This document shows positions 140 through 57,145 of a DNA stretch of 64,000 nt, piece after piece. The DNA lies in assembly GCA_964559915.1 (NCBI GenBank), contig CAZLJP010000002.1:66423-130422 (forward strand), written 5' to 3'. Within the stretch, counting starts at the first letter, position 1. Each line of letters begins with the position of its first letter. This DNA comes from an uncultured Candidatus Saccharibacteria bacterium (GTDB lineage Bacteria; Patescibacteriota; Saccharimonadia; Saccharimonadales; JALRHH01). The position numbers and the translations under genes are program-made. The notes beneath the pieces were generated by a model. The model searched no databases. It was given only the letters and a program-made list of their open reading frames with translations, and was not told the DNA's origin.

Positions 140-1681
140 ATGAAAATAAAACTATTGCTGAGCTGTTTGATAGTTGCGCTAGGCTGCACACTCGTAGCAC
201 CCGTAGCCGCTCGCGCTGACTCAAATAACGCGACCGTTGATACCGGTTGCGATGCAGATGACTCACCATCCTACACTGGAACGCTATCAGTACCAGACGG
301 AACGTATGATGCGTATGCTCGCTTATCTAAACGAGGTGAGCAAGCTACCGTTCGTGCGTATGCGCAAACCGCGAGTGGCGAATACGGTATCTGCCAGAAA
401 CTCGGTGAAGTTGCCGCGAGTGGCGACAGCTGGACGAAATTAGGAGAGCTTACTGCAGCTGGTGACAAAGAATACACACTGCAACTATCGTCAATTGCAC
501 TCGGGGGGTTGCCTGATGCCAACCGTCCAGCCATCCTGTTGGTACCTCATGATAATCCAATCTGCGTCCCTCGAATTGAGTGTGAACTCACAGTCAATGG
601 CCAAGCAGGCTTCGTGAGGCCCACGGGTACACTCTTAAACGAAGATTCGTTGCATGTGCTGCTGGTGACTAATCCCGATGCCAGCACCATTGCAGGCGTC
701 CGCTATTACGTTGACAACAAGTTGGCTTACGAAACATCGCAGCTGAAACCATTTGACTTGCGCTACGTATCGTATCCCAAACAGAAACTGGCACGTGCGG
801 TTATCTACACATCAGGACAACAAATTATCCTTCCGGGGGAAGTGCCCAGCAATTATCAAGACAGTTTTGGTAACCTCATGTTTCGGCTCGGCAAGCAGTA
901 CCCAAATATCATAACTATCGCCCTTGTACTGCTCGGTGTGATACTACTACTATCTAGTATCCTGGCAATTACGCATGCTGTCTGGCATCACCGTAACTGG
1001 CAATATAACCATGGCATTGCGCGCAAAACAGCTCATCAACTGACAAACGGCGAAAAGATACTACTACAAAAACGTGAGGGTATCATACGCATATCCAAAC
1101 TCACCCTGCTAGGTACGGGTATTACTACTGTGACTATTGCGAGCATTTTGCTGGCAAACACGTACCTAGCGCAGATATTTACCGTAGACGGCCGCAGTAT
1201 GCGAGACACGATGTTCACCGGCGAAAAGGTGCTGATTAATAAAATTCCTTCGTCTTTGGCCAGCCTCAATAACAGGGAATACATACCAAACCGCGGCGAT
1301 GTAGTGGTGGCACGTGCTGTATTTGGAGCCGTAGGACTTGATACTGACACCAGCAGTCAAATCTACATCATTAAGCGAGTAATCGGATTACCTGGTGAGC
1401 GAATAGTCGTAAAAGACGGCACTCTGACGGTATACAACAAAGAGCACCCTGATGGATTCCAACCTGACAAGGGTAGTCACTGGGAGCACACCATGGTCCC
1501 AAATGAAAGAACGGAGCAACTTGATGTACAGCTCAGCCAAAGCGAGCTGTTCTTGAGCGGCGACAATCGGCCAGAATCAATTGATAGTCGTTTTAATGGT
1601 CCTATTACTACCAATGAAATTGTGGGTCGGGCAAGTAAAATATGGCCACCATTCGGACACAGTCACCCCGCAGACGAATAA
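140..1681 (+). CDS. lepB: Signal peptidase I (S26) with ~330-aa N-terminal extension
   Basis: 513-aa ORF. The C-terminal third carries S26 motifs GRSMRDTM (Ser box), IIKRVIGLPGE (Lys box) and SGDNRPESIDSR. The N-terminus looks like a signal peptide (MKIKLLLSCLIVALGCTLVAPVAARA). It is followed by a Cys-containing domain and two hydrophobic segments. Confidence 0.8.
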   Translation: MKIKLLLSCLIVALGCTLVAPVAARADSNNATVDTGCDADDSPSYTGTLSVPDGTYDAYARLSKRGEQATVRAYAQTASGEYGICQKLGEVAASGDSWTKLGELTAAGDKEYTLQLSSIALGGLPDANRPAILLVPHDNPICVPRIECELTVNGQAGFVRPTGTLLNEDSLHVLLVTNPDASTIAGVRYYVDNKLAYETSQLKPFDLRYVSYPKQKLARAVIYTSGQQIILPGEVPSNYQDSFGNLMFRLGKQYPNIITIALVLLGVILLLSSILAITHAVWHHRNWQYNHGIARKTAHQLTNGEKILLQKREGIIRISKLTLLGTGITTVTIASILLANTYLAQIFTVDGRSMRDTMFTGEKVLINKIPSSLASLNNREYIPNRGDVVVARAVFGAVGLDTDTSSQIYIIKRVIGLPGERIVVKDGTLTVYNKEHPDGFQPDKGSHWEHTMVPNERTEQLDVQLSQSELFLSGDNRPESIDSRFNGPITTNEIVGRASKIWPPFGHSHPADE

Positions 1682-1749
1682 ACGTAAGATATTTCATAGT
1701 CCTAATCATGTAGAAAAAGAGATAATATCTGACAAGAAAGGGAGGTTTT

Positions 1750-2769: not shown

Positions 2770-3779
2770 AGCTACACCCCGGGTCACTCAGACTAGCAGG
2801 ACTCTATCTAGGCGTACTGATGGTTATCAGCCTATTCTTCAGTGCGACCTTGTACCAGACCTCACTACGTGAGCTAGACCGTGGCCTACGCGGCCCAACC
2901 ACCGTCATTAATGGTCCGATTGGACCAGGCTTTTCTGAGAATATTCGTACCCAAATTATTAATGAGCGCGGTTTGCGGTACGAGGAGGCCCGCAGTAATA
3001 TTCTAAAAAACTTAGTAGCAGTTAACTTTGTCATCCTAATTGGTGGTGGGGCACTGTGCTATTACCTGGCACTGCGTACACTCAAACCAATTGAGGAAAG
3101 CCACGAAGCTCAGAGCCGGTTTACCGCAGATGCCAGCCACGAACTGCGCACCCCAATTACTGCAATACGCACCGAAAACGAGGTAGCTCTGATGGACCCC
3201 AAATTATCACTCAAAGATGCTAAGGTACAGCTCCAAAGTAATATCGATGAATTAGAAAAATTAACTACATTGTCAGAAGGGTTACTACGGTTAGCGCAGA
3301 TAGATAATAATCATCTAGAAAAAGAACCAATTAGCGCAAAACAGATTGCAGAATCAGCCGTTGAACGCATGGCTCCTATGGCAAAACACAAATCAATCAC
3401 CATCAAAACCAAGATTGATACGGATAGTTTAGTGATAGGCGACACCAGTAGCTTAACGGAAGCATTAGTTACCATTCTGGACAATGCTATTAAATACTCA
3501 CCTAAATCCTCCGAAATACAGCTTGCCTTATTACAATCACAACGGCATGTTGAATTCCGTGTCACAGATAGTGGTGTCGGCATTAAGGCCAGTGAACTAC
3601 CTCATATCTTTGACCGATTCTATCGAGCTGATTCTTCGCGCACCAAACAACAAGTTAGCGGCTACGGCCTCGGCCTGGCAATCGCCAAGAATATTATAAC
3701 TGCGCATGATGGCAAGATAACGGCTATCAGTACGCCCGGCAGCGGTAGTACGTTCATCATCAGCCTGCTCTCAGCTTAA
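2766..3779 (+). CDS. Sensor histidine kinase
   Basis: 337 aa. Two N-terminal hydrophobic segments. H-box FTADASHELRTPITAI. ATPase boxes DNAIKYSP, DSGVGI and GYGLGLAIAK. Confidence 0.9.
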   Translation: MKLHPGSLRLAGLYLGVLMVISLFFSATLYQTSLRELDRGLRGPTTVINGPIGPGFSENIRTQIINERGLRYEEARSNILKNLVAVNFVILIGGGALCYYLALRTLKPIEESHEAQSRFTADASHELRTPITAIRTENEVALMDPKLSLKDAKVQLQSNIDELEKLTTLSEGLLRLAQIDNNHLEKEPISAKQIAESAVERMAPMAKHKSITIKTKIDTDSLVIGDTSSLTEALVTILDNAIKYSPKSSEIQLALLQSQRHVEFRVTDSGVGIKASELPHIFDRFYRADSSRTKQQVSGYGLGLAIAKNIITAHDGKITAISTPGSGSTFIISLLSA

Positions 3780-50791: not shown

Positions 50792-52570
50792 CTAGTTGGT
50801 CTTCGGTGTAACCCCGTAACTATCAATCATCATGTTGGCTAGTTTTACGAATATTGGTGCTGCTGCTTTTGACCCTGCATAGCCTGCAATTTTGGGTTTA
50901 TTTACACGCACCACAATGACGTATTCAGGCTTATCGCCACCAATAAAGCCAACATACATACCGTTAAAGAGGTCATCGTAGTAGCCACCCGTTGGCTTGG
51001 TTATTTGGGCAGTGCCGGTTTTGCCGCCAACTGCGTATTCACCGCGGACTGGACCAGCTCCATAGGCCGTACGGTTGGCTTGATATGTTATCTGTAACAT
51101 ATTGACTAGCTGGGCACTTATTTCTGGCCGGATAGCTTGTTTGTGCAGGATTTCTGGTTTATGTTTGGTCTGTTTGCCGGACGCATCCGTGGTGGCTTCT
51201 ATGAGTGTTGGTTTGTAATACGTACCGCCGTTTAGGATAGCGGCAAATGCCCCGGCCATCTGCAGAGGCGTGGCAGTCATACCCTGTCCAAAGGCCGTGT
51301 TGGCATAAGTAATATTCAAACCAAAGCCGTCTGTTGGGTGCGGAATAGTACCGGGCGCCTCGTAACCCTGTTCAATACCCGTAGTGGCACCGAAATTATA
51401 ATGATTAATCATATAATCATACCAACGCGTTCGTGCTTGCTCATTAATGGAGCCGCCGCCCATTTGCATAAGTAACCACGTAGCACCTGTATTGAGGGAG
51501 TATTTCAAGATATCCGTGACTGTGCGTTGCGCCGCACCACCATCTTCCTCGATATTGGTAACCTTTGCGTCATCAATCTTATAAAACCCGGGATCATAGT
51601 AACTTGTTGAGGGGTTCACCGTATTCAGATTCATCGCAGCAGCGGCAGTCAATGGCTTCATAACCGAACCAACCTCTAGGGGGTCACTGACATTAGTGTT
51701 GTTAAATGCCTCTGGCTTGGTTACCTTAAAGTATTCTGCTGGGTTATAGGTTGGTGCGCTAGCCATGGCCCGTATAGCGCCCGTGTTGGCATCCATAATC
51801 ATCGCGCTGCCTGATTCGGCTTTGGCACTTTCTAGGCCCTGCTTCAATATATCTTCCAGTTGCTGTTGGATGCTAACATCAATGGTCAGCGTCAATGTCT
51901 TGCCTGCTTCTGGTGCTATTACCACATTATCTTTATTGGCAGCTAGTGGTATGCCAGCCGCGTCAGTAATAGCCTTCAACTGGCCTGGCGTGCCTCTGAG
52001 TTCTTGGTTAAGTGCTTCCTCGAGGCCATATTTGCCGTCACCATCGTCATTTACAAATCCCAGTAGTTGGGAAGCTAGTTGGCCATCTGGGTAGGTCCTA
52101 TACTGCGCCTCACGCGTACCCACACCTTTTAGTTTCAGCGCATCAATTGCCTCATGTTGTTGCCTGGTCAGTCGCTTGGCTAGCACTGTGTAGCGTGGTG
52201 AGTCGGGGTGCTTTATTTTATCTTCGTATTGGTTAGCTTGGGCGCCTGTTGCCTTTGCTAGCTGAGAGGCTACATCACTGGCATCCTTAACATATTTTGG
52301 GTCAACAAAGAGCGTATAGAGTGTCTCGTTGAGCACGAGCGGCACCGTTTGCTCACCGCTTTTGGCCTGAATGACGCCACGGACGGCAGGAACTTCATAT
52401 TCTTTCAGCTGACTAAAAGCGGCTGCCTTCTGATAATAATCATGTCGAATCACCTGCAAATAAAACAATCGAATCACAAACAAAATACCGACGGCTATCA
52501 GAACCCCATGCCACACTCGAATGCGCGCAATGGTGCCAAATTTTATGTTTGTTTGTGGTCGCATAAGCAC
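50792..52570 (-). CDS. ftsI: Penicillin-binding protein 2/3 type transpeptidase (FtsI)
   Basis: 592 aa. N-terminal TM. SxxK (GSVMKP), SxN (YSLN) and KTG (GKTGTA). Confidence 0.93.
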   Translation of the reverse strand: MLMRPQTNIKFGTIARIRVWHGVLIAVGILFVIRLFYLQVIRHDYYQKAAAFSQLKEYEVPAVRGVIQAKSGEQTVPLVLNETLYTLFVDPKYVKDASDVASQLAKATGAQANQYEDKIKHPDSPRYTVLAKRLTRQQHEAIDALKLKGVGTREAQYRTYPDGQLASQLLGFVNDDGDGKYGLEEALNQELRGTPGQLKAITDAAGIPLAANKDNVVIAPEAGKTLTLTIDVSIQQQLEDILKQGLESAKAESGSAMIMDANTGAIRAMASAPTYNPAEYFKVTKPEAFNNTNVSDPLEVGSVMKPLTAAAAMNLNTVNPSTSYYDPGFYKIDDAKVTNIEEDGGAAQRTVTDILKYSLNTGATWLLMQMGGGSINEQARTRWYDYMINHYNFGATTGIEQGYEAPGTIPHPTDGFGLNITYANTAFGQGMTATPLQMAGAFAAILNGGTYYKPTLIEATTDASGKQTKHKPEILHKQAIRPEISAQLVNMLQITYQANRTAYGAGPVRGEYAVGGKTGTAQITKPTGGYYDDLFNGMYVGFIGGDKPEYVIVVRVNKPKIAGYAGSKAAAPIFVKLANMMIDSYGVTPKTN

Positions 52571-52621
52571 TTTTATTATACCACTTTATCCACCTATAAC
52601 AGAGTATTGAGTCCCGCGTAG

Positions 52622-52851
52622 CCAGATGTTTTGTGCTTGAGCCAGTTTTCGTTTTTATCCGACATGGTCTCCCTTTTGGCTGCAAGCGGGCTTAGCCCGC
52701 TTCACAGCAATAGGCACGATCTCGGAACGCAAGCAAGCCGTACGTTTGGTACGGTGAGTGCGTACCGTAAGGATAAAGGCGGAAAATGGTCAAGAAGGCA
52801 GCGGGCTGCGAGCTTTGCTCGTAGACAGGCTGGCTGCCACAAAACATCTGG
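52622..52851. repeat. 230-bp structured element bounded by a 14-bp perfect inverted repeat, in the ftsL-ftsI spacer
   Basis: CCAGATGTTTTGTG (52622-52635) is the exact reverse complement of CACAAAACATCTGG (52838-52851). The helix is extended by AGCCAG/CTGGCT after a small internal loop. The interior has several further stems. Confidence 0.8.
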
Positions 52852-52852
52852 G

Positions 52853-53200
52853 TTAGTTTTGAATGGTAGCGCTGGGCGCGACAGATACCATGTTCTTGGC
52901 CACATCGCTGTTCTTTACACGGTCGAGCGCCTGCAAACGGGCAGCTGATACCTGTAATTCAGCGTTTTCGTCCTTGAGCTTAGTTTGCTGTTGCTCAAGG
53001 CCATTAATCTTGTAGCCGTAGGCATTTGTTTTGGTCACCTGCGTCAGATACAGCAGGCCTAAAAGACATGCCAAAATAATCAGCATAATGGTATTACTGA
53101 CCGGGCCAAGCGTCCGTTCATTACTGCGAAAACGCGTGGTATTTTGATTGCGACCGTAGCTACGATTTCTGCTCATAGCTAGTGAGCTGGAATATGTCAT
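52853..53200 (-). CDS. ftsL: FtsL-like cell division protein
   Basis: 115 aa. Basic N-terminus, one TM, and a coiled coil (LEQQQTKLKDENAELQVSAARLQALDRV). It lies between rsmH and ftsI. Confidence 0.65.
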   Translation of the reverse strand: MTYSSSLAMSRNRSYGRNQNTTRFRSNERTLGPVSNTIMLIILACLLGLLYLTQVTKTNAYGYKINGLEQQQTKLKDENAELQVSAARLQALDRVKNSDVAKNMVSVAPSATIQN

Positions 53201-54229: not shown

Positions 54230-54615
54230 TGCGCACTAATCTACTCGCTTTTTATTTTGGTTTTGATTTTGGTGTTTTTGTTTTAATGCTTTTTGAAAAG
54301 CTTCAAAGTCACCTAACTGATAGCCAACTTTTTGTTTTTTGGTTGTTTTTGTTTTTGTGTGTTCTTATCCGTGTATGTGAGAGTAGTTCTTTAGACTATT
54401 TTTGCCTAAAGCATTGCCTTCACTGGTTAAGAACATAAGTGTTGAGAGACTTATGTGTGAGGTGGAGTTTTGGGAGGTGTTTTGAGGTAATGTGCTAGGG
54501 TTTTTTATATGGTTACCCTCGGTCCATATGTTGACTATCAGATAGTTAACTTCGATAAGAAATCTATCTGTTTGTTGCTATCGTCGAATTGTTAAGGTAC
54601 TACAAAGTCACCAAT

Positions 54616-55876: not shown

Positions 55877-57145
55877 TTATTCGTTTATCTTGGCGATTGT
55901 TGCTGCGAACCATTTGGCACTGGGGCGAACTGTACGCTTGAGGCCGCGTTTGCGGTCGACCGCAATCAAGCCGAACCGTGGCCACCAACCATCTTGCCAT
56001 TCAAAATTATCTAATAAGCTCCAGTGGAAATAGCCACGCAGATCCACGCCTTCACTAATTGCACGCTCCATGGCCACGATTGTTTCCTCAATCCACCAGC
56101 GACGATGCACGTCCGTAGCATCTGCCAGACCGTTCTCGGTAATAAAAATCGGTGTCTTGAAACGGGCCCAGGTCCGGAGCAGCAAAGGATAGATACCTTC
56201 TGGCTCCATATACCAACCCATATCATTGAGTGGCACCTTGGGATTGGCTCGCTTGCCCAAGCCCGTAAAGTAATCGCTAAAGTAATAGTTCAGCCCTATG
56301 AAGTCTTGGTGTTTGCGGATGCGGCGCAGATACCACCAGTTCCAGAAATAGCGCATCCATTGTGTGGTTAGTTCGTCTAGATATTTATGAGGCCTTTTGG
56401 CTTGAATATTGGCAAGCTGCATGGCAACGCCAACTTGTAATGATGGTTTCTTGGCCTTGAGTATGTCATAAGCATACCTATGAGCCCTAACTAAATTCCA
56501 ATACACATTCATAAATGTCAGAGTGCTGCGCTTGCCCGGTGGGTGCTGACCCGTGAGGTAGCTAAAGCTAGCATCAACATTTGGCTCGTTTAATGTAATT
56601 ACATATTCCACATCATCGAGCAGCTCTTCGGATATCTTATCGACAAAACGCATAAAATAGGTCAGGTTTTCTGACTTTTCAAAACCGCCCTTTTCCGCAA
56701 ACCACACCGGCATTGTCCAGTGCCAAATATTAAGGAAAGGTTCGAGCTTGCGTGCACGTAGTTCTTTAATGTATTTCTTGTAATGCGCCACCGCCTGGGC
56801 ATCCCAGACACCTTCTTCCGGCTCAAGTCTGGACCATTCAATAGTAAATCTGAAGGCATTGAGGTTGAGCGATTGAGCTAAGTCAAAATCTTCTTTGTAT
56901 CTGTTAAAATGGTCAACACCTTTGCCTGAAACATAGTTTTCAGGCTCTTCGGCCTGGTCTTTAATCTCTTGCCAATTGGGTAGCCAGCTGAGCCGTTGAT
57001 GCGCCGTCTGCGCAAACTCTTTGGCGTGCTCTAGCTCCCAGACCGTCCACTGATTATACAAATCGCCTTCTACCTGGTGCGCGGCGGTACTGGCGCCCCA
57101 GAAAAAATGCTTGGGGAAATTACGGTCTGGATGTTCTTCGTTCAT
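55877..57145 (-). CDS. GH1-family beta-glucosidase
   Basis: 422 aa. FFWGASTAAHQVEG, acid/base ITLNEPN, nucleophile FITENG. Confidence 0.93.
   Translation of the reverse strand: MNEEHPDRNFPKHFFWGASTAAHQVEGDLYNQWTVWELEHAKEFAQTAHQRLSWLPNWQEIKDQAEEPENYVSGKGVDHFNRYKEDFDLAQSLNLNAFRFTIEWSRLEPEEGVWDAQAVAHYKKYIKELRARKLEPFLNIWHWTMPVWFAEKGGFEKSENLTYFMRFVDKISEELLDDVEYVITLNEPNVDASFSYLTGQHPPGKRSTLTFMNVYWNLVRAHRYAYDILKAKKPSLQVGVAMQLANIQAKRPHKYLDELTTQWMRYFWNWWYLRRIRKHQDFIGLNYYFSDYFTGLGKRANPKVPLNDMGWYMEPEGIYPLLLRTWARFKTPIFITENGLADATDVHRRWWIEETIVAMERAISEGVDLRGYFHWSLLDNFEWQDGWWPRFGLIAVDRKRGLKRTVRPSAKWFAATIAKINE

Follow-up and report, generated by a model that had tools for sequence, protein, structure and literature searches.

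The stretch analysed here (the window) comprises 64,000 nt of contig CAZLJP010000002.1 from an uncultured Candidatus Saccharibacteria bacterium, and the question it raises is what a 230-nt element (positions 52622-52851), closed by an inverted repeat and lying exactly between the ftsL and ftsI genes of the dcw cluster, might be. In an initial annotation, three explanations had been offered: an insertion resembling a transposable element of the miniature inverted-repeat type (MITE), an RNA processed from the dcw transcript, or a cis element setting the ftsL:ftsI expression ratio. We are confident that the element belongs to a dispersed, multi-copy family in Saccharibacteria whose structure is constrained and strand-specific. 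As to its role, the chances are about even that it is a stand-alone expressed structured RNA, trimmed to its closing stem (P1) and probably protein-bound.

The element and its parts

The two arms of the inverted repeat, CCAGATGTTTTGTG (52622-52635) and CACAAAACATCTGG (52838-52851), were 100% complementary over 14 bp. By a rough estimate, ~4e-4 chance occurrences of a perfect 14-bp inverted repeat are expected within ~450 nt. The ftsL-ftsI spacer that contains the element is 282 nt long in the window, and its + strand folded at -119.2 kcal/mol (z = -6.8 vs. shuffles), compared with -102.5 kcal/mol (z = -4.5) for the - strand. For the element alone, the values were -117.3 kcal/mol on the + strand, in a fold with eight G-U pairs, and -97.3 kcal/mol on the - strand. 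Moreover, an independent assembly of the same strain (L117, from run SRR8931242) was 100% identical to the window over 1324 nt including the element, which is therefore not an assembly artefact. The parts of the element, together with its 5' spacer and a second family member found in the window, are the following:

52571-52621, no strand assigned: 5' spacer, read directly from the sequence, with the ftsI promoter on the - strand and -10-like boxes on the + strand
52622-52635, + strand: P1 5' arm of the closing stem, CCAGAUGUUUUGUG, perfect 14-bp complement of 52838-52851
52636-52660, + strand: P2 5' strand, CUUGAGCCAGUUUUCGUUUUUAUCC, pairing with 52771-52794 in the minimum-energy fold
52663-52723, + strand: private extra hairpin containing AAGCGGGCU/AGCCCGCUU, a 61-nt insert of the window copy only
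52724-52766, + strand: conserved core with GGAACG, internal loop, P3 (CCGUAC/GUACGG), UGAGUG and CGUACC, the basis of the search pattern
52771-52794, + strand: P2 3' strand, GGAUAAAGGCGGAAAAUGGUCAAG, partner of 52636-52660
52797-52837, + strand: P4 arm, GGCAGCGGGCUGCGAGCUUUGCUCGUAGACAGGCUGGCUGC, with 10 of 10 modelled pairs covarying in the family
52838-52851, + strand: P1 3' arm, CACAAAACAUCUGG, 1 nt before the ftsL stop codon
57136-57255, + strand: second family member, without P4 (model R1, 25.5 bits, E ~1e-3, with and without filters)

The initial annotation had the structure right, with its perfect repeat, strong fold and location, and its coordinates within a base. The left arm, placed about 50 nt upstream of ftsI, lies 51 nt from the GTG start (52570) and 57 nt from an ATG (52564), while the right arm, which ends at 52851, is separated from the ftsL stop codon TAA (52855-52853, - strand) by 1 nt instead of the 2 nt given. 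As for the interior, the proposed CGAGC/GCTCG pairing corresponds to the tip of the conserved P4 arm. The hairpin AAGCGGGC/GCCCGCTT exists as well, with 9 bp and not 8, and is located in the private insert, which folds on its own (-25.3 kcal/mol, z = -3.8) and is missing from every other copy, including the orthologues in loci L113 and L114. The hexamers AGCCAG and CTGGCT, which had been taken to extend the closing stem, are present but unpaired with each other, the former being in P2 and the latter in P4. Finally, the trio CCGTAC-GTACGG-CGTACC had been read as a switch in which the middle segment pairs either way. This had to be abandoned: CCGTAC and GTACGG form P3, CGTACC pairs with GGAACG (52724-52729) in a covarying helix, and the alternative pairing is not conserved, GUAU taking the place of GUAC within P3 in 19 of 32 copies.

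Search for further copies

No further mismatch-free occurrence of the 14-mer arm, by which other copies were to be recognized, was found in the 64 kb. A BLAST search of the whole element against 16 related dcw loci gave matches at other sites, between ftsI and mraY in L001 and between ftsW and murG in L005, and with a profile search another L005 copy came to light in the mraZ-rsmH spacer. In these first four copies, compensatory changes were present in 28 of 61 predicted pairs. Furthermore, a core pattern (GGAACG N8-12 GTA N5-10 TAC NN TGA NN G N GTACCG) matched 96 metagenome contigs, with one match each, and had no match in viral contigs, on which account a phage or plasmid origin was dropped. 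A covariance model (R1) subsequently gave 98 matches in 654 kb (window and loci).

The copies ranged from 120 to 230 nt in length, with a density of ~1 per 30-50 kb when only sequence not selected for the element was counted. Twelve sources carried two copies a few kb apart, on the same strand in eight and on opposite strands in four. In L018, two family members, 1325-1482 (+) and 1574-1729 (-), were convergent and separated by ~90 nt. The taxonomy of the copies is established for the contigs of labelled Saccharibacteria metagenome-assembled genomes only (L001 and L005). For the window itself, the nearest relatives of FtsI in the genome collection were metagenome-assembled genomes labelled Candidatus Saccharibacteria, Saccharimonadales or Saccharimonadia, and labels of the same type were found on those with FtsL homologues.

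The second copy in the window is a probable family member. Its 5' end overlaps the start codon of a GH1 glycosidase gene (55877-57145, - strand), it carries AGGAACGGA...GCGAGUACCGC, and its + strand folded at -40.3 kcal/mol (z = -5.2). In addition, its orthologue in L114 retains two hairpins via changes on both sides. The two window copies were 26% identical, a figure that is unreliable due to misalignment of the first copy in alignment A5.

The covariance-model scan proposed for the element was run against Rfam 15 and revealed no family there. In particular, only three tRNAs were detected in the window at the gathering threshold, the best match in region 52400-53000 was unrelated (E = 0.23), and in none of 20 loci that carry canonical copies did a match with E up to 1 overlap the element. 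ARAGORN likewise gave only three ordinary tRNAs in the window, none of them at the element. A description of the family was not found in the searched literature. Being absent from Rfam 15 and without description in that literature, the family is uncatalogued.

A common fold supported by covariation

A total of 32 copies were aligned, from which the private insert of the window copy (52663-52723) was removed first, and the structure was refined by hand. In the resulting 49-pair structure, 89.0% of the cells formed standard pairs, compared with 30-42% when the partners were slid by 1-3 columns, and changes on both sides were observed in 40 of the 49 pairs. The covariation score was 0.633 vs. 0.236 for shuffles, with none of 500 shuffles reaching it. 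Moreover, the strongest pairs by mutual information over 92 distinct copies all fell within the structure or continued the outer P4 helix, and no pseudoknot or other tertiary covariation signal was seen.

P1 was present in all full-length members, mostly with 13-14 bp and with a different sequence in each copy, and 7 of its 7 modelled pairs covaried. P2, a long arm, has conserved internal loops (18 of 19 pairs of helices 2 and 3 changed on both sides), and at its tip a conserved GGAACG/GUACC helix with an A-A mismatch is found; the internal loops beyond this helix are purine-rich and, as read by eye, contain tandem G-A pairs. The tip helix itself covaries in copies found only with the model, as GAAACG/CGUAUC (L113, L114) and GAACAG/CUGGUC (L079), which supports ordinary Watson-Crick pairing interrupted by a single purine-purine mismatch. 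The P3 hairpin has covarying pairs, and its loop is variable. P4, which lies between P2 and the P1 3' strand, is optional, so that the fold is Y-shaped where P4 is present and a rod where it is absent (L021, L025, L058, L062, L085, L087, L113 and L114). In the rod-shaped copies, P1 and the base of P2 form a near-continuous duplex of 20-30 bp.

The P1 arms were also found to be asymmetric in composition, positions 4-8 of the 3' arm being purine-rich (position 4 was a purine in 69 of 74 copies) and the 5' arm pyrimidine-rich. Shine-Dalgarno-like motifs occurred in 31 of 74 3' arms vs. 6 of 74 5' arms, and anti-Shine-Dalgarno-like motifs in 16 of 74 5' arms.

Several resemblances noticed by eye, to a 23S rRNA segment (GUGAACCAGUACCGUGAGG), a T-box sequence (GGUGGUACCGCG), domain IV of the signal recognition particle RNA, a sarcin-ricin/loop-E turn (AGUA/GAA) and a kink-turn, were dropped, given the ordinary pairing supported for the tip helix and the lack of support from an Rfam model; a standard kink-turn also does not fit the geometry of the internal loops. 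Coding potential was discarded as well, since a 14-codon open reading frame (ORF) of the main subfamily (AUGCAGUAC...) was not conserved in other subfamilies.

The strand under selection

Among the paired cells of the alignment, G-U pairs were more frequent than A-C cells (125 vs. 48), which identifies a sense strand. This strand was the more stable one in 38 of 38 copies tested, by a mean of ~16 kcal/mol, irrespective of whether the downstream gene was convergent (22/22) or co-directional (16/16), and the ratio of G-U to A-C was ~3.4 to 1 in both groups alike. The family shows what characterizes structured non-coding RNA in general, namely a conserved secondary structure with compensatory changes on one strand. 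In the window, this strand is the + strand, which runs antisense to both ftsL and ftsI. The same holds for the orthologues in L113 and L114, which occupy the same site in the same orientation and folded at -61.5 and -62.1 kcal/mol, respectively, vs. -36.2 and -36.9 kcal/mol for the other strand. The strand kept by selection runs opposite to dcw; this rules out maturation of the RNA from a dcw transcript, and with it the second of the explanations offered at the outset.

The insertion in the dcw cluster

The genes of the cluster in the window are the following:

54975-54616, - strand: mraZ, confirmed by Pfam
54229-53336, - strand: rsmH, confirmed by Pfam (RsmH)
53200-52853, - strand: FtsL-like ORF of 115 aa, identified by position, transmembrane segment and coiled coil only
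52570-50792, - strand: ftsI, with a Pfam PBP transpeptidase match
50759-49716, - strand: mraY, confirmed by Pfam
49715-48468, - strand: ftsW, confirmed by Pfam

The FtsL-like ORF had no Pfam match. The ftsI promoter, TGGTATAAT, is located at 52583-52575 on the - strand, 4 nt before the GTG, and with this layout (TATAAT, 4 nt, GTG) the ftsI mRNA would be leaderless or nearly so. The promoter was kept in L001, L113, L115 and L116, regardless of the presence of the element. Having its own promoter, ftsI is independent of read-through, and the insertion is tolerated. Individual TATAAT promoters also seem apparent for dcw genes (- strand, 52583-52562 and also 50790-50760), and a promoter-to-start arrangement like that of ftsI was seen before gap in L062 and pyrG in L025.

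The ftsL-ftsI spacer was compared among relatives, as had been advised, and the element was either absent or represented by a shorter orthologue. In the 16 related dcw clusters, this spacer is usually 10-40 nt long; L001 (31 nt) and L116 (106 nt) have it empty, and in L113 and L114 it is filled by a P4-less orthologue of ~125 nt. In L115, whose FtsL is 92% identical to that of the window, it contains a called ORF of 66 aa (1678-1878) with a faint PQ-loop hint. The ftsL-ftsI spacer seems to be a variable slot, and the window copy was inserted in a lineage-specific manner, with the ftsL stop codon on one side and the promoter of ftsI itself on the other. Other dcw spacers are also occupied, so that copies were found in ftsL-ftsI (window, L113 and L114), ftsI-mraY (L001), ftsW-murG (L005 and L113) and mraZ-rsmH (L005 and L097). 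The L113 copy between ftsW and murG (L113:5930-6077, - strand) has no counterpart in the window, and the L005 copy at the same junction is in the opposite orientation. A dcw copy was absent from 14 of the 16 related clusters (L002-L004 and L006-L016), and also from L115 and L116.

The mraZ-rsmH site, filled in L097 and L005, is empty in the window. When the filled site of L097 is set against the empty one of the window, the 3' end of the element meets the conserved flank within ~3 nt, while ~50 nt differ on the 5' side, the same asymmetry as in the spacing data given below. At the ftsL-ftsI site, the P1 and P2 sequences of the window differ wholly from those of L113 and L114 and still pair. 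Re-insertion at a hotspot was considered for this difference and dropped, given that the flanking coding DNA is only 75-90% identical and vertical descent with compensation is sufficient. An origin of P1 from pre-existing host sequence or a terminator stem was also discarded, as no matching sequence was found in the empty sites (L001, L016 and window). Furthermore, the identity between L114 and the window dropped from 89.7% in mraZ-ftsL (55197-52852) to 75.7% in ftsI (52587-51915), exactly at the spacer, which suggests a putative recombination breakpoint at the element.

These data bear on a dcw-specific regulator, either an RNA cut from the mraZ-rsmH-ftsL-ftsI transcript or an element or switch for the ftsL:ftsI ratio. 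The location exactly between both genes and the presence of several members in dcw spacers would agree with it, as would the - strand, whose own fold is good (-97 kcal/mol) and would put a strong hairpin at a distance of 1 nt behind the ftsL stop codon. We nonetheless consider it hardly credible: the selected strand is antisense to dcw in the window and its orthologues, most members adjoin unrelated genes, most relatives lack a dcw copy altogether, ftsI has its own conserved promoter, and the alternative pairing needed for a switch is not conserved. The ratio element of the initial annotation finds no support either, in view of the unrelated neighbours of other members and the promoter of ftsI.

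Separately from the family, the mraZ-rsmH spacer constitutes a conserved non-coding block (window 54230-54615, - strand; L114:3606-3936; L097:1081-1402; L005:1925-2271). In it, a ~20-bp helix joins GUUAACUAUCUGAUAGUCAAC to GUUGGCUAUCAGUUAGGUGAC ~230 nt downstream, with three pairs changed on both sides, and invariant CA-rich stretches (e.g. AAAACACCUCCCAAAACUCCACCUCACACAUAAGUCUCUCAA) are found between the helix strands. This block had no Rfam match and may be a second, separate structured leader before rsmH.

Selection at single loci and the question of mobility

Orthologous copies were compared in four sets: nusA-infB (L017/L052/L056), L042/L053, rpsF-ssb (L032/L070) and L057/L040. The orthologues differed mainly by compensatory double changes or G-U intermediates; in one example, five double changes and one via G-U were found vs. 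two disruptive ones. Unpaired columns changed less than stems (e.g. 3 of 59 differed). P1 illustrates this well, with ACGATTTATACATC/GGTGTATAAATCGT in L017 vs. ACGATTTACACATC/GGTGTGTAAATCGT in L056. As far as can be read from sequence comparison, the structure is shown to be maintained at individual loci. An earlier argument, that P1 is renewed at each transposition since copies with a similar core may have a different P1 (e.g. L030/L024, core 0.81 and P1 0.29), fails because constrained positions account for the ~75% baseline identity of main-subfamily copies.

Copies on the same contig shared a core identity of only 24-55%, and all the pairs above 83% core identity had common flanks and were thus orthologues. 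Among the copies compared, no near-identical ones were found in different contexts, so there is no sign of recent transposition. Consequently, the MITE-like insertion of the initial annotation stands in part. The element is an insertion relative to relatives, dispersed, multi-copy and in both orientations, with presence/absence polymorphism at orthologous sites (ftsL-ftsI and mraZ-rsmH). On the other hand, the many near-identical copies per genome and the conserved terminal inverted repeats of a MITE are lacking, since P1 differs between copies and covaries. The flanking ORFs, of which the N-termini were inspected by eye only, included no conspicuous transposase, and no target-site duplication or conserved flanking tetranucleotide was seen in ~75 flanks read by eye; the filled-vs-empty comparisons (window/L001 and L097/window) are too divergent for base-exact junctions.

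An old, selfish, non-autonomous mobile DNA element, whose strand-specific fold would serve mobility as single-stranded DNA and whose ftsL-ftsI copy would be tolerated, has therefore to be weighed, the comparison being with Rickettsia palindromic elements and with palindrome-associated elements moved as single-stranded DNA. Such an element would account for the presence/absence among relatives with different dcw spacers occupied, for both orientations relative to the neighbours, for copies that encode no protein and are confined to spacers, with some overlapping ORF ends, and for the drop in identity of L114 exactly at the spacer; folded single-stranded DNA could also give the strand-specific G-T signal. 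We regard it as unlikely, given the divergence of same-contig copies, the common flanks of all close pairs, the non-conserved termini and the lack of a visible target-site duplication or transposase within the limits just given. Moreover, orthologues at a given locus retain their loops and restore the pairing of their stems, which is not expected of decaying selfish DNA, and any strand bias is weak among the 12 two-copy contigs (8 same vs. 4 opposite).

Gene context and transcript ends

The neighbours of the copies were varied and included nusA-infB, rpsT, rpsF/ssb, nrdR, dnaG, murG, mraZ, pyrG, gap, 16S rRNA and tRNA genes, among others, the genes around copies being simple ORF calls and their names a reading of ORF N-termini, not database matches. 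The orientation relative to the two neighbours was near random: opposite/opposite in 22 copies, same/same in 20, same/opposite in 12 and opposite/same in 8. The downstream neighbour was thus convergent in 34 of 62 copies, the window included, which is not the upstream, same-strand position of a riboswitch or cis-acting leader. In the window, no + strand gene follows the element in the listed stretch up to 56500.

This position weighs on the reading as a riboswitch or other ligand- or factor-responsive leader, in which P1 would hide a downstream ribosome-binding site. A P1-closed three-way junction with conserved unpaired nucleotides would be in keeping with it, and so would the purine-rich P1 3' arm with its excess of Shine-Dalgarno-like motifs, several of them on the same strand and ~6 nt before a start. 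It is very improbable in view of the convergent genes, the lack of a common function among downstream genes, the absence of tertiary covariation and the lack of a match to any Rfam riboswitch.

The spacing of the copies was asymmetric. The 5' gap had a median of 57 nt, whatever the orientation of the neighbour, and was ≤10 nt from an ORF in 7 of 62 copies. The modelled 3' end lay ≤10 nt from the next ORF boundary in 28 of 62 copies, and in 21 of the 34 with a convergent neighbour. The 5' flank had an A+T content of 59% (vs. 52%) and was richer in -10-like hexamers. An ordinary small gene would be expected to have such spacing where the genome is compact, with a promoter region on the 5' side and nothing between 3' ends. 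In the window, the + strand of the 5' spacer contains the -10-like boxes TATTAT (52574-52579) and TATAAC (52595-52600), from which we infer that this spacer could be used as a + strand promoter for the element.

At the other end, the number of T residues in the 12 nt after P1 was unremarkable (≤4 in 62 of 75 copies). A scan for intrinsic terminators found none at the element, whose - strand flank (CUACGCGGGAC) is not U-rich. In ~10 copies, a same-strand start codon followed P1 by 0-3 nt, as for nrdR (L030), a cation antiporter (L042, L053), infB (L017, L052, L056), murG (L005), yebC (L050) and the copies in L068 and L027. Likewise, the L024 copy (2786-2947) ended ~3 nt before position 1 of the 16S rRNA (2950-3012), and the L088 copy was found 9 nt before a tRNA.

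The latter copies raise the possibility of a cis-acting RNA module that marks transcript boundaries, in which a transcript arriving from the 5' side would fold into the P1-closed structure and be cut or stopped at the P1 base, releasing leaderless mRNA or rRNA 5' ends; with a convergent neighbour, as here, it would stop antisense transcription entering ftsL. tRNAs have a similar punctuation role in mitochondrial transcripts. The close starts, the 16S rRNA and tRNA copies and the apparently leaderless or near-leaderless neighbour genes (such as ftsI) would all be explained, the separate selection on every copy fits a local role, and the 20-30 bp near-continuous duplex of P1 and P2 in rod copies is the kind of substrate that RNase III prefers. 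Such a module is distinctly unlikely: the 34 copies facing a convergent gene have no transcript to release, polymerase passing through in the sense direction and stopping in the antisense one are not obviously compatible, there is no U-tract, and an apical core as conserved as this one would be superfluous in a processing site.

Proposed role of the family

We favour, at the even chance stated above, the stand-alone expressed RNA. Each copy would act as a small RNA gene of its own, its transcription being deduced from sequence features and starting from the AT-rich, promoter-bearing 5' spacer, which here may be the ftsI promoter region read in the divergent direction. Trimming back to P1 would follow, and the conserved loops, together with the purine-rich internal loops, would provide a protein-binding surface, making the product a stable particle of RNA and protein. 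As far as the dcw genes are concerned, the copy would probably be neutral because ftsI is independent of read-through, or at most a 3' hairpin on the ftsL transcript.

Several observations weigh against such an RNA. In most copies, GGAACG...GUACCG is invariant because the search pattern demanded it. No -10 box was found at a fixed distance from P1, -10-like boxes were equally present on both strands of the 5' flank, and there was no consistent U-run after P1 in ~75 flanks. The start codons or RNA 5' end 0-3 nt after P1 (nrdR, infB, murG, 16S) imply a co-transcribed leader and so fit a cis role better. Many paralogues, each under selection, are odd for a redundant trans-acting RNA. Finally, folded single-stranded DNA also tolerates G-T wobbles, so the strand signal is not a strict proof of RNA.

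More tentatively, Saccharibacteria might possess a new class of small structured RNA in the form of a multigene family, with every paralogue selected at its own locus, either as the core of an RNA-protein particle or as a processing or catalytic RNA that shapes transcript ends in their leaderless, highly compact genomes; we see this as a possibility and not as the expected outcome. Saccharibacteria and other Patescibacteria have tiny genomes, and almost nothing on their RNA biology was found in the searched literature. The family has unusually strong covariation support and occupies a noticeable share of scarce intergenic space, and, should it be expressed, it would join the small number of lineage-specific structured RNAs on record for this group. 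As regards annotation, the reading of the element as a cell-division riboregulator is removed, and the covariance model explains many 'long' spacers.

Comparison with known systems

The features of REP/BIME, ERIC, Correia and Rickettsia palindromic elements, of the raiA, OLE, ROOL/GOLLD and HEARO RNAs, of 23S rRNA intervening sequences and of mitochondrial tRNA are taken here as general background. The mraW RNA motif (RF01746), found upstream of mraW/mraZ in Actinobacteria and acting in the sense orientation, resembles the element as a structured RNA associated with the dcw cluster; however, it had no match in the Rfam scans around the element, and the present family is not tied to dcw. With the 'punctuation' by mitochondrial tRNA, a functional analogy only, the family shares the ~10 copies lying 0-3 nt before a start codon or RNA 5' end, but it is no tRNA according to ARAGORN and Rfam, and over half of its copies face convergent genes. 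The intervening sequences of 23S rRNA, which are removed by RNase III, are likewise sporadic insertions with a long closing stem, at which trimming is probable by analogy; they are located inside rRNA helices and have no conserved apical core, in contrast to the intergenic copies described here.

Dispersed palindromic repeats offer a closer parallel. REP/BIME palindromes are tagged GTAG or CGTC at one end, while in the family GTAG precedes P1 only in the window copy. The REP palindromes are short as well, 20-40 bp (PMC3733652), vs. 120-230 nt with a conserved core here. In common with REP/BIME, ERIC, Correia and Rickettsia palindromic elements, the family is non-coding, multi-copy, found mainly in spacers and closed by inverted repeats, and its copies occur in either orientation, are present or absent in relatives and may be co-transcribed with their neighbours. 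The differences are that those repeats are near-identical whereas the copies of this family are divergent (24-55%), that their termini are conserved transposase sites whereas the terminal stems here covary, and that a conserved core and a strand-specific fold are kept at each locus of the family, at low copy number.

Lastly, compared with the orphan RNA classes raiA, OLE, ROOL/GOLLD and HEARO, the family is smaller (120-230 nt), has no pseudoknot signal, no recurrent neighbour gene and no Rfam 15 match, and comprises many divergent paralogues per genome. It shares with all of them strong covariation, conserved loops, an orphan biochemical role and restriction to a lineage.

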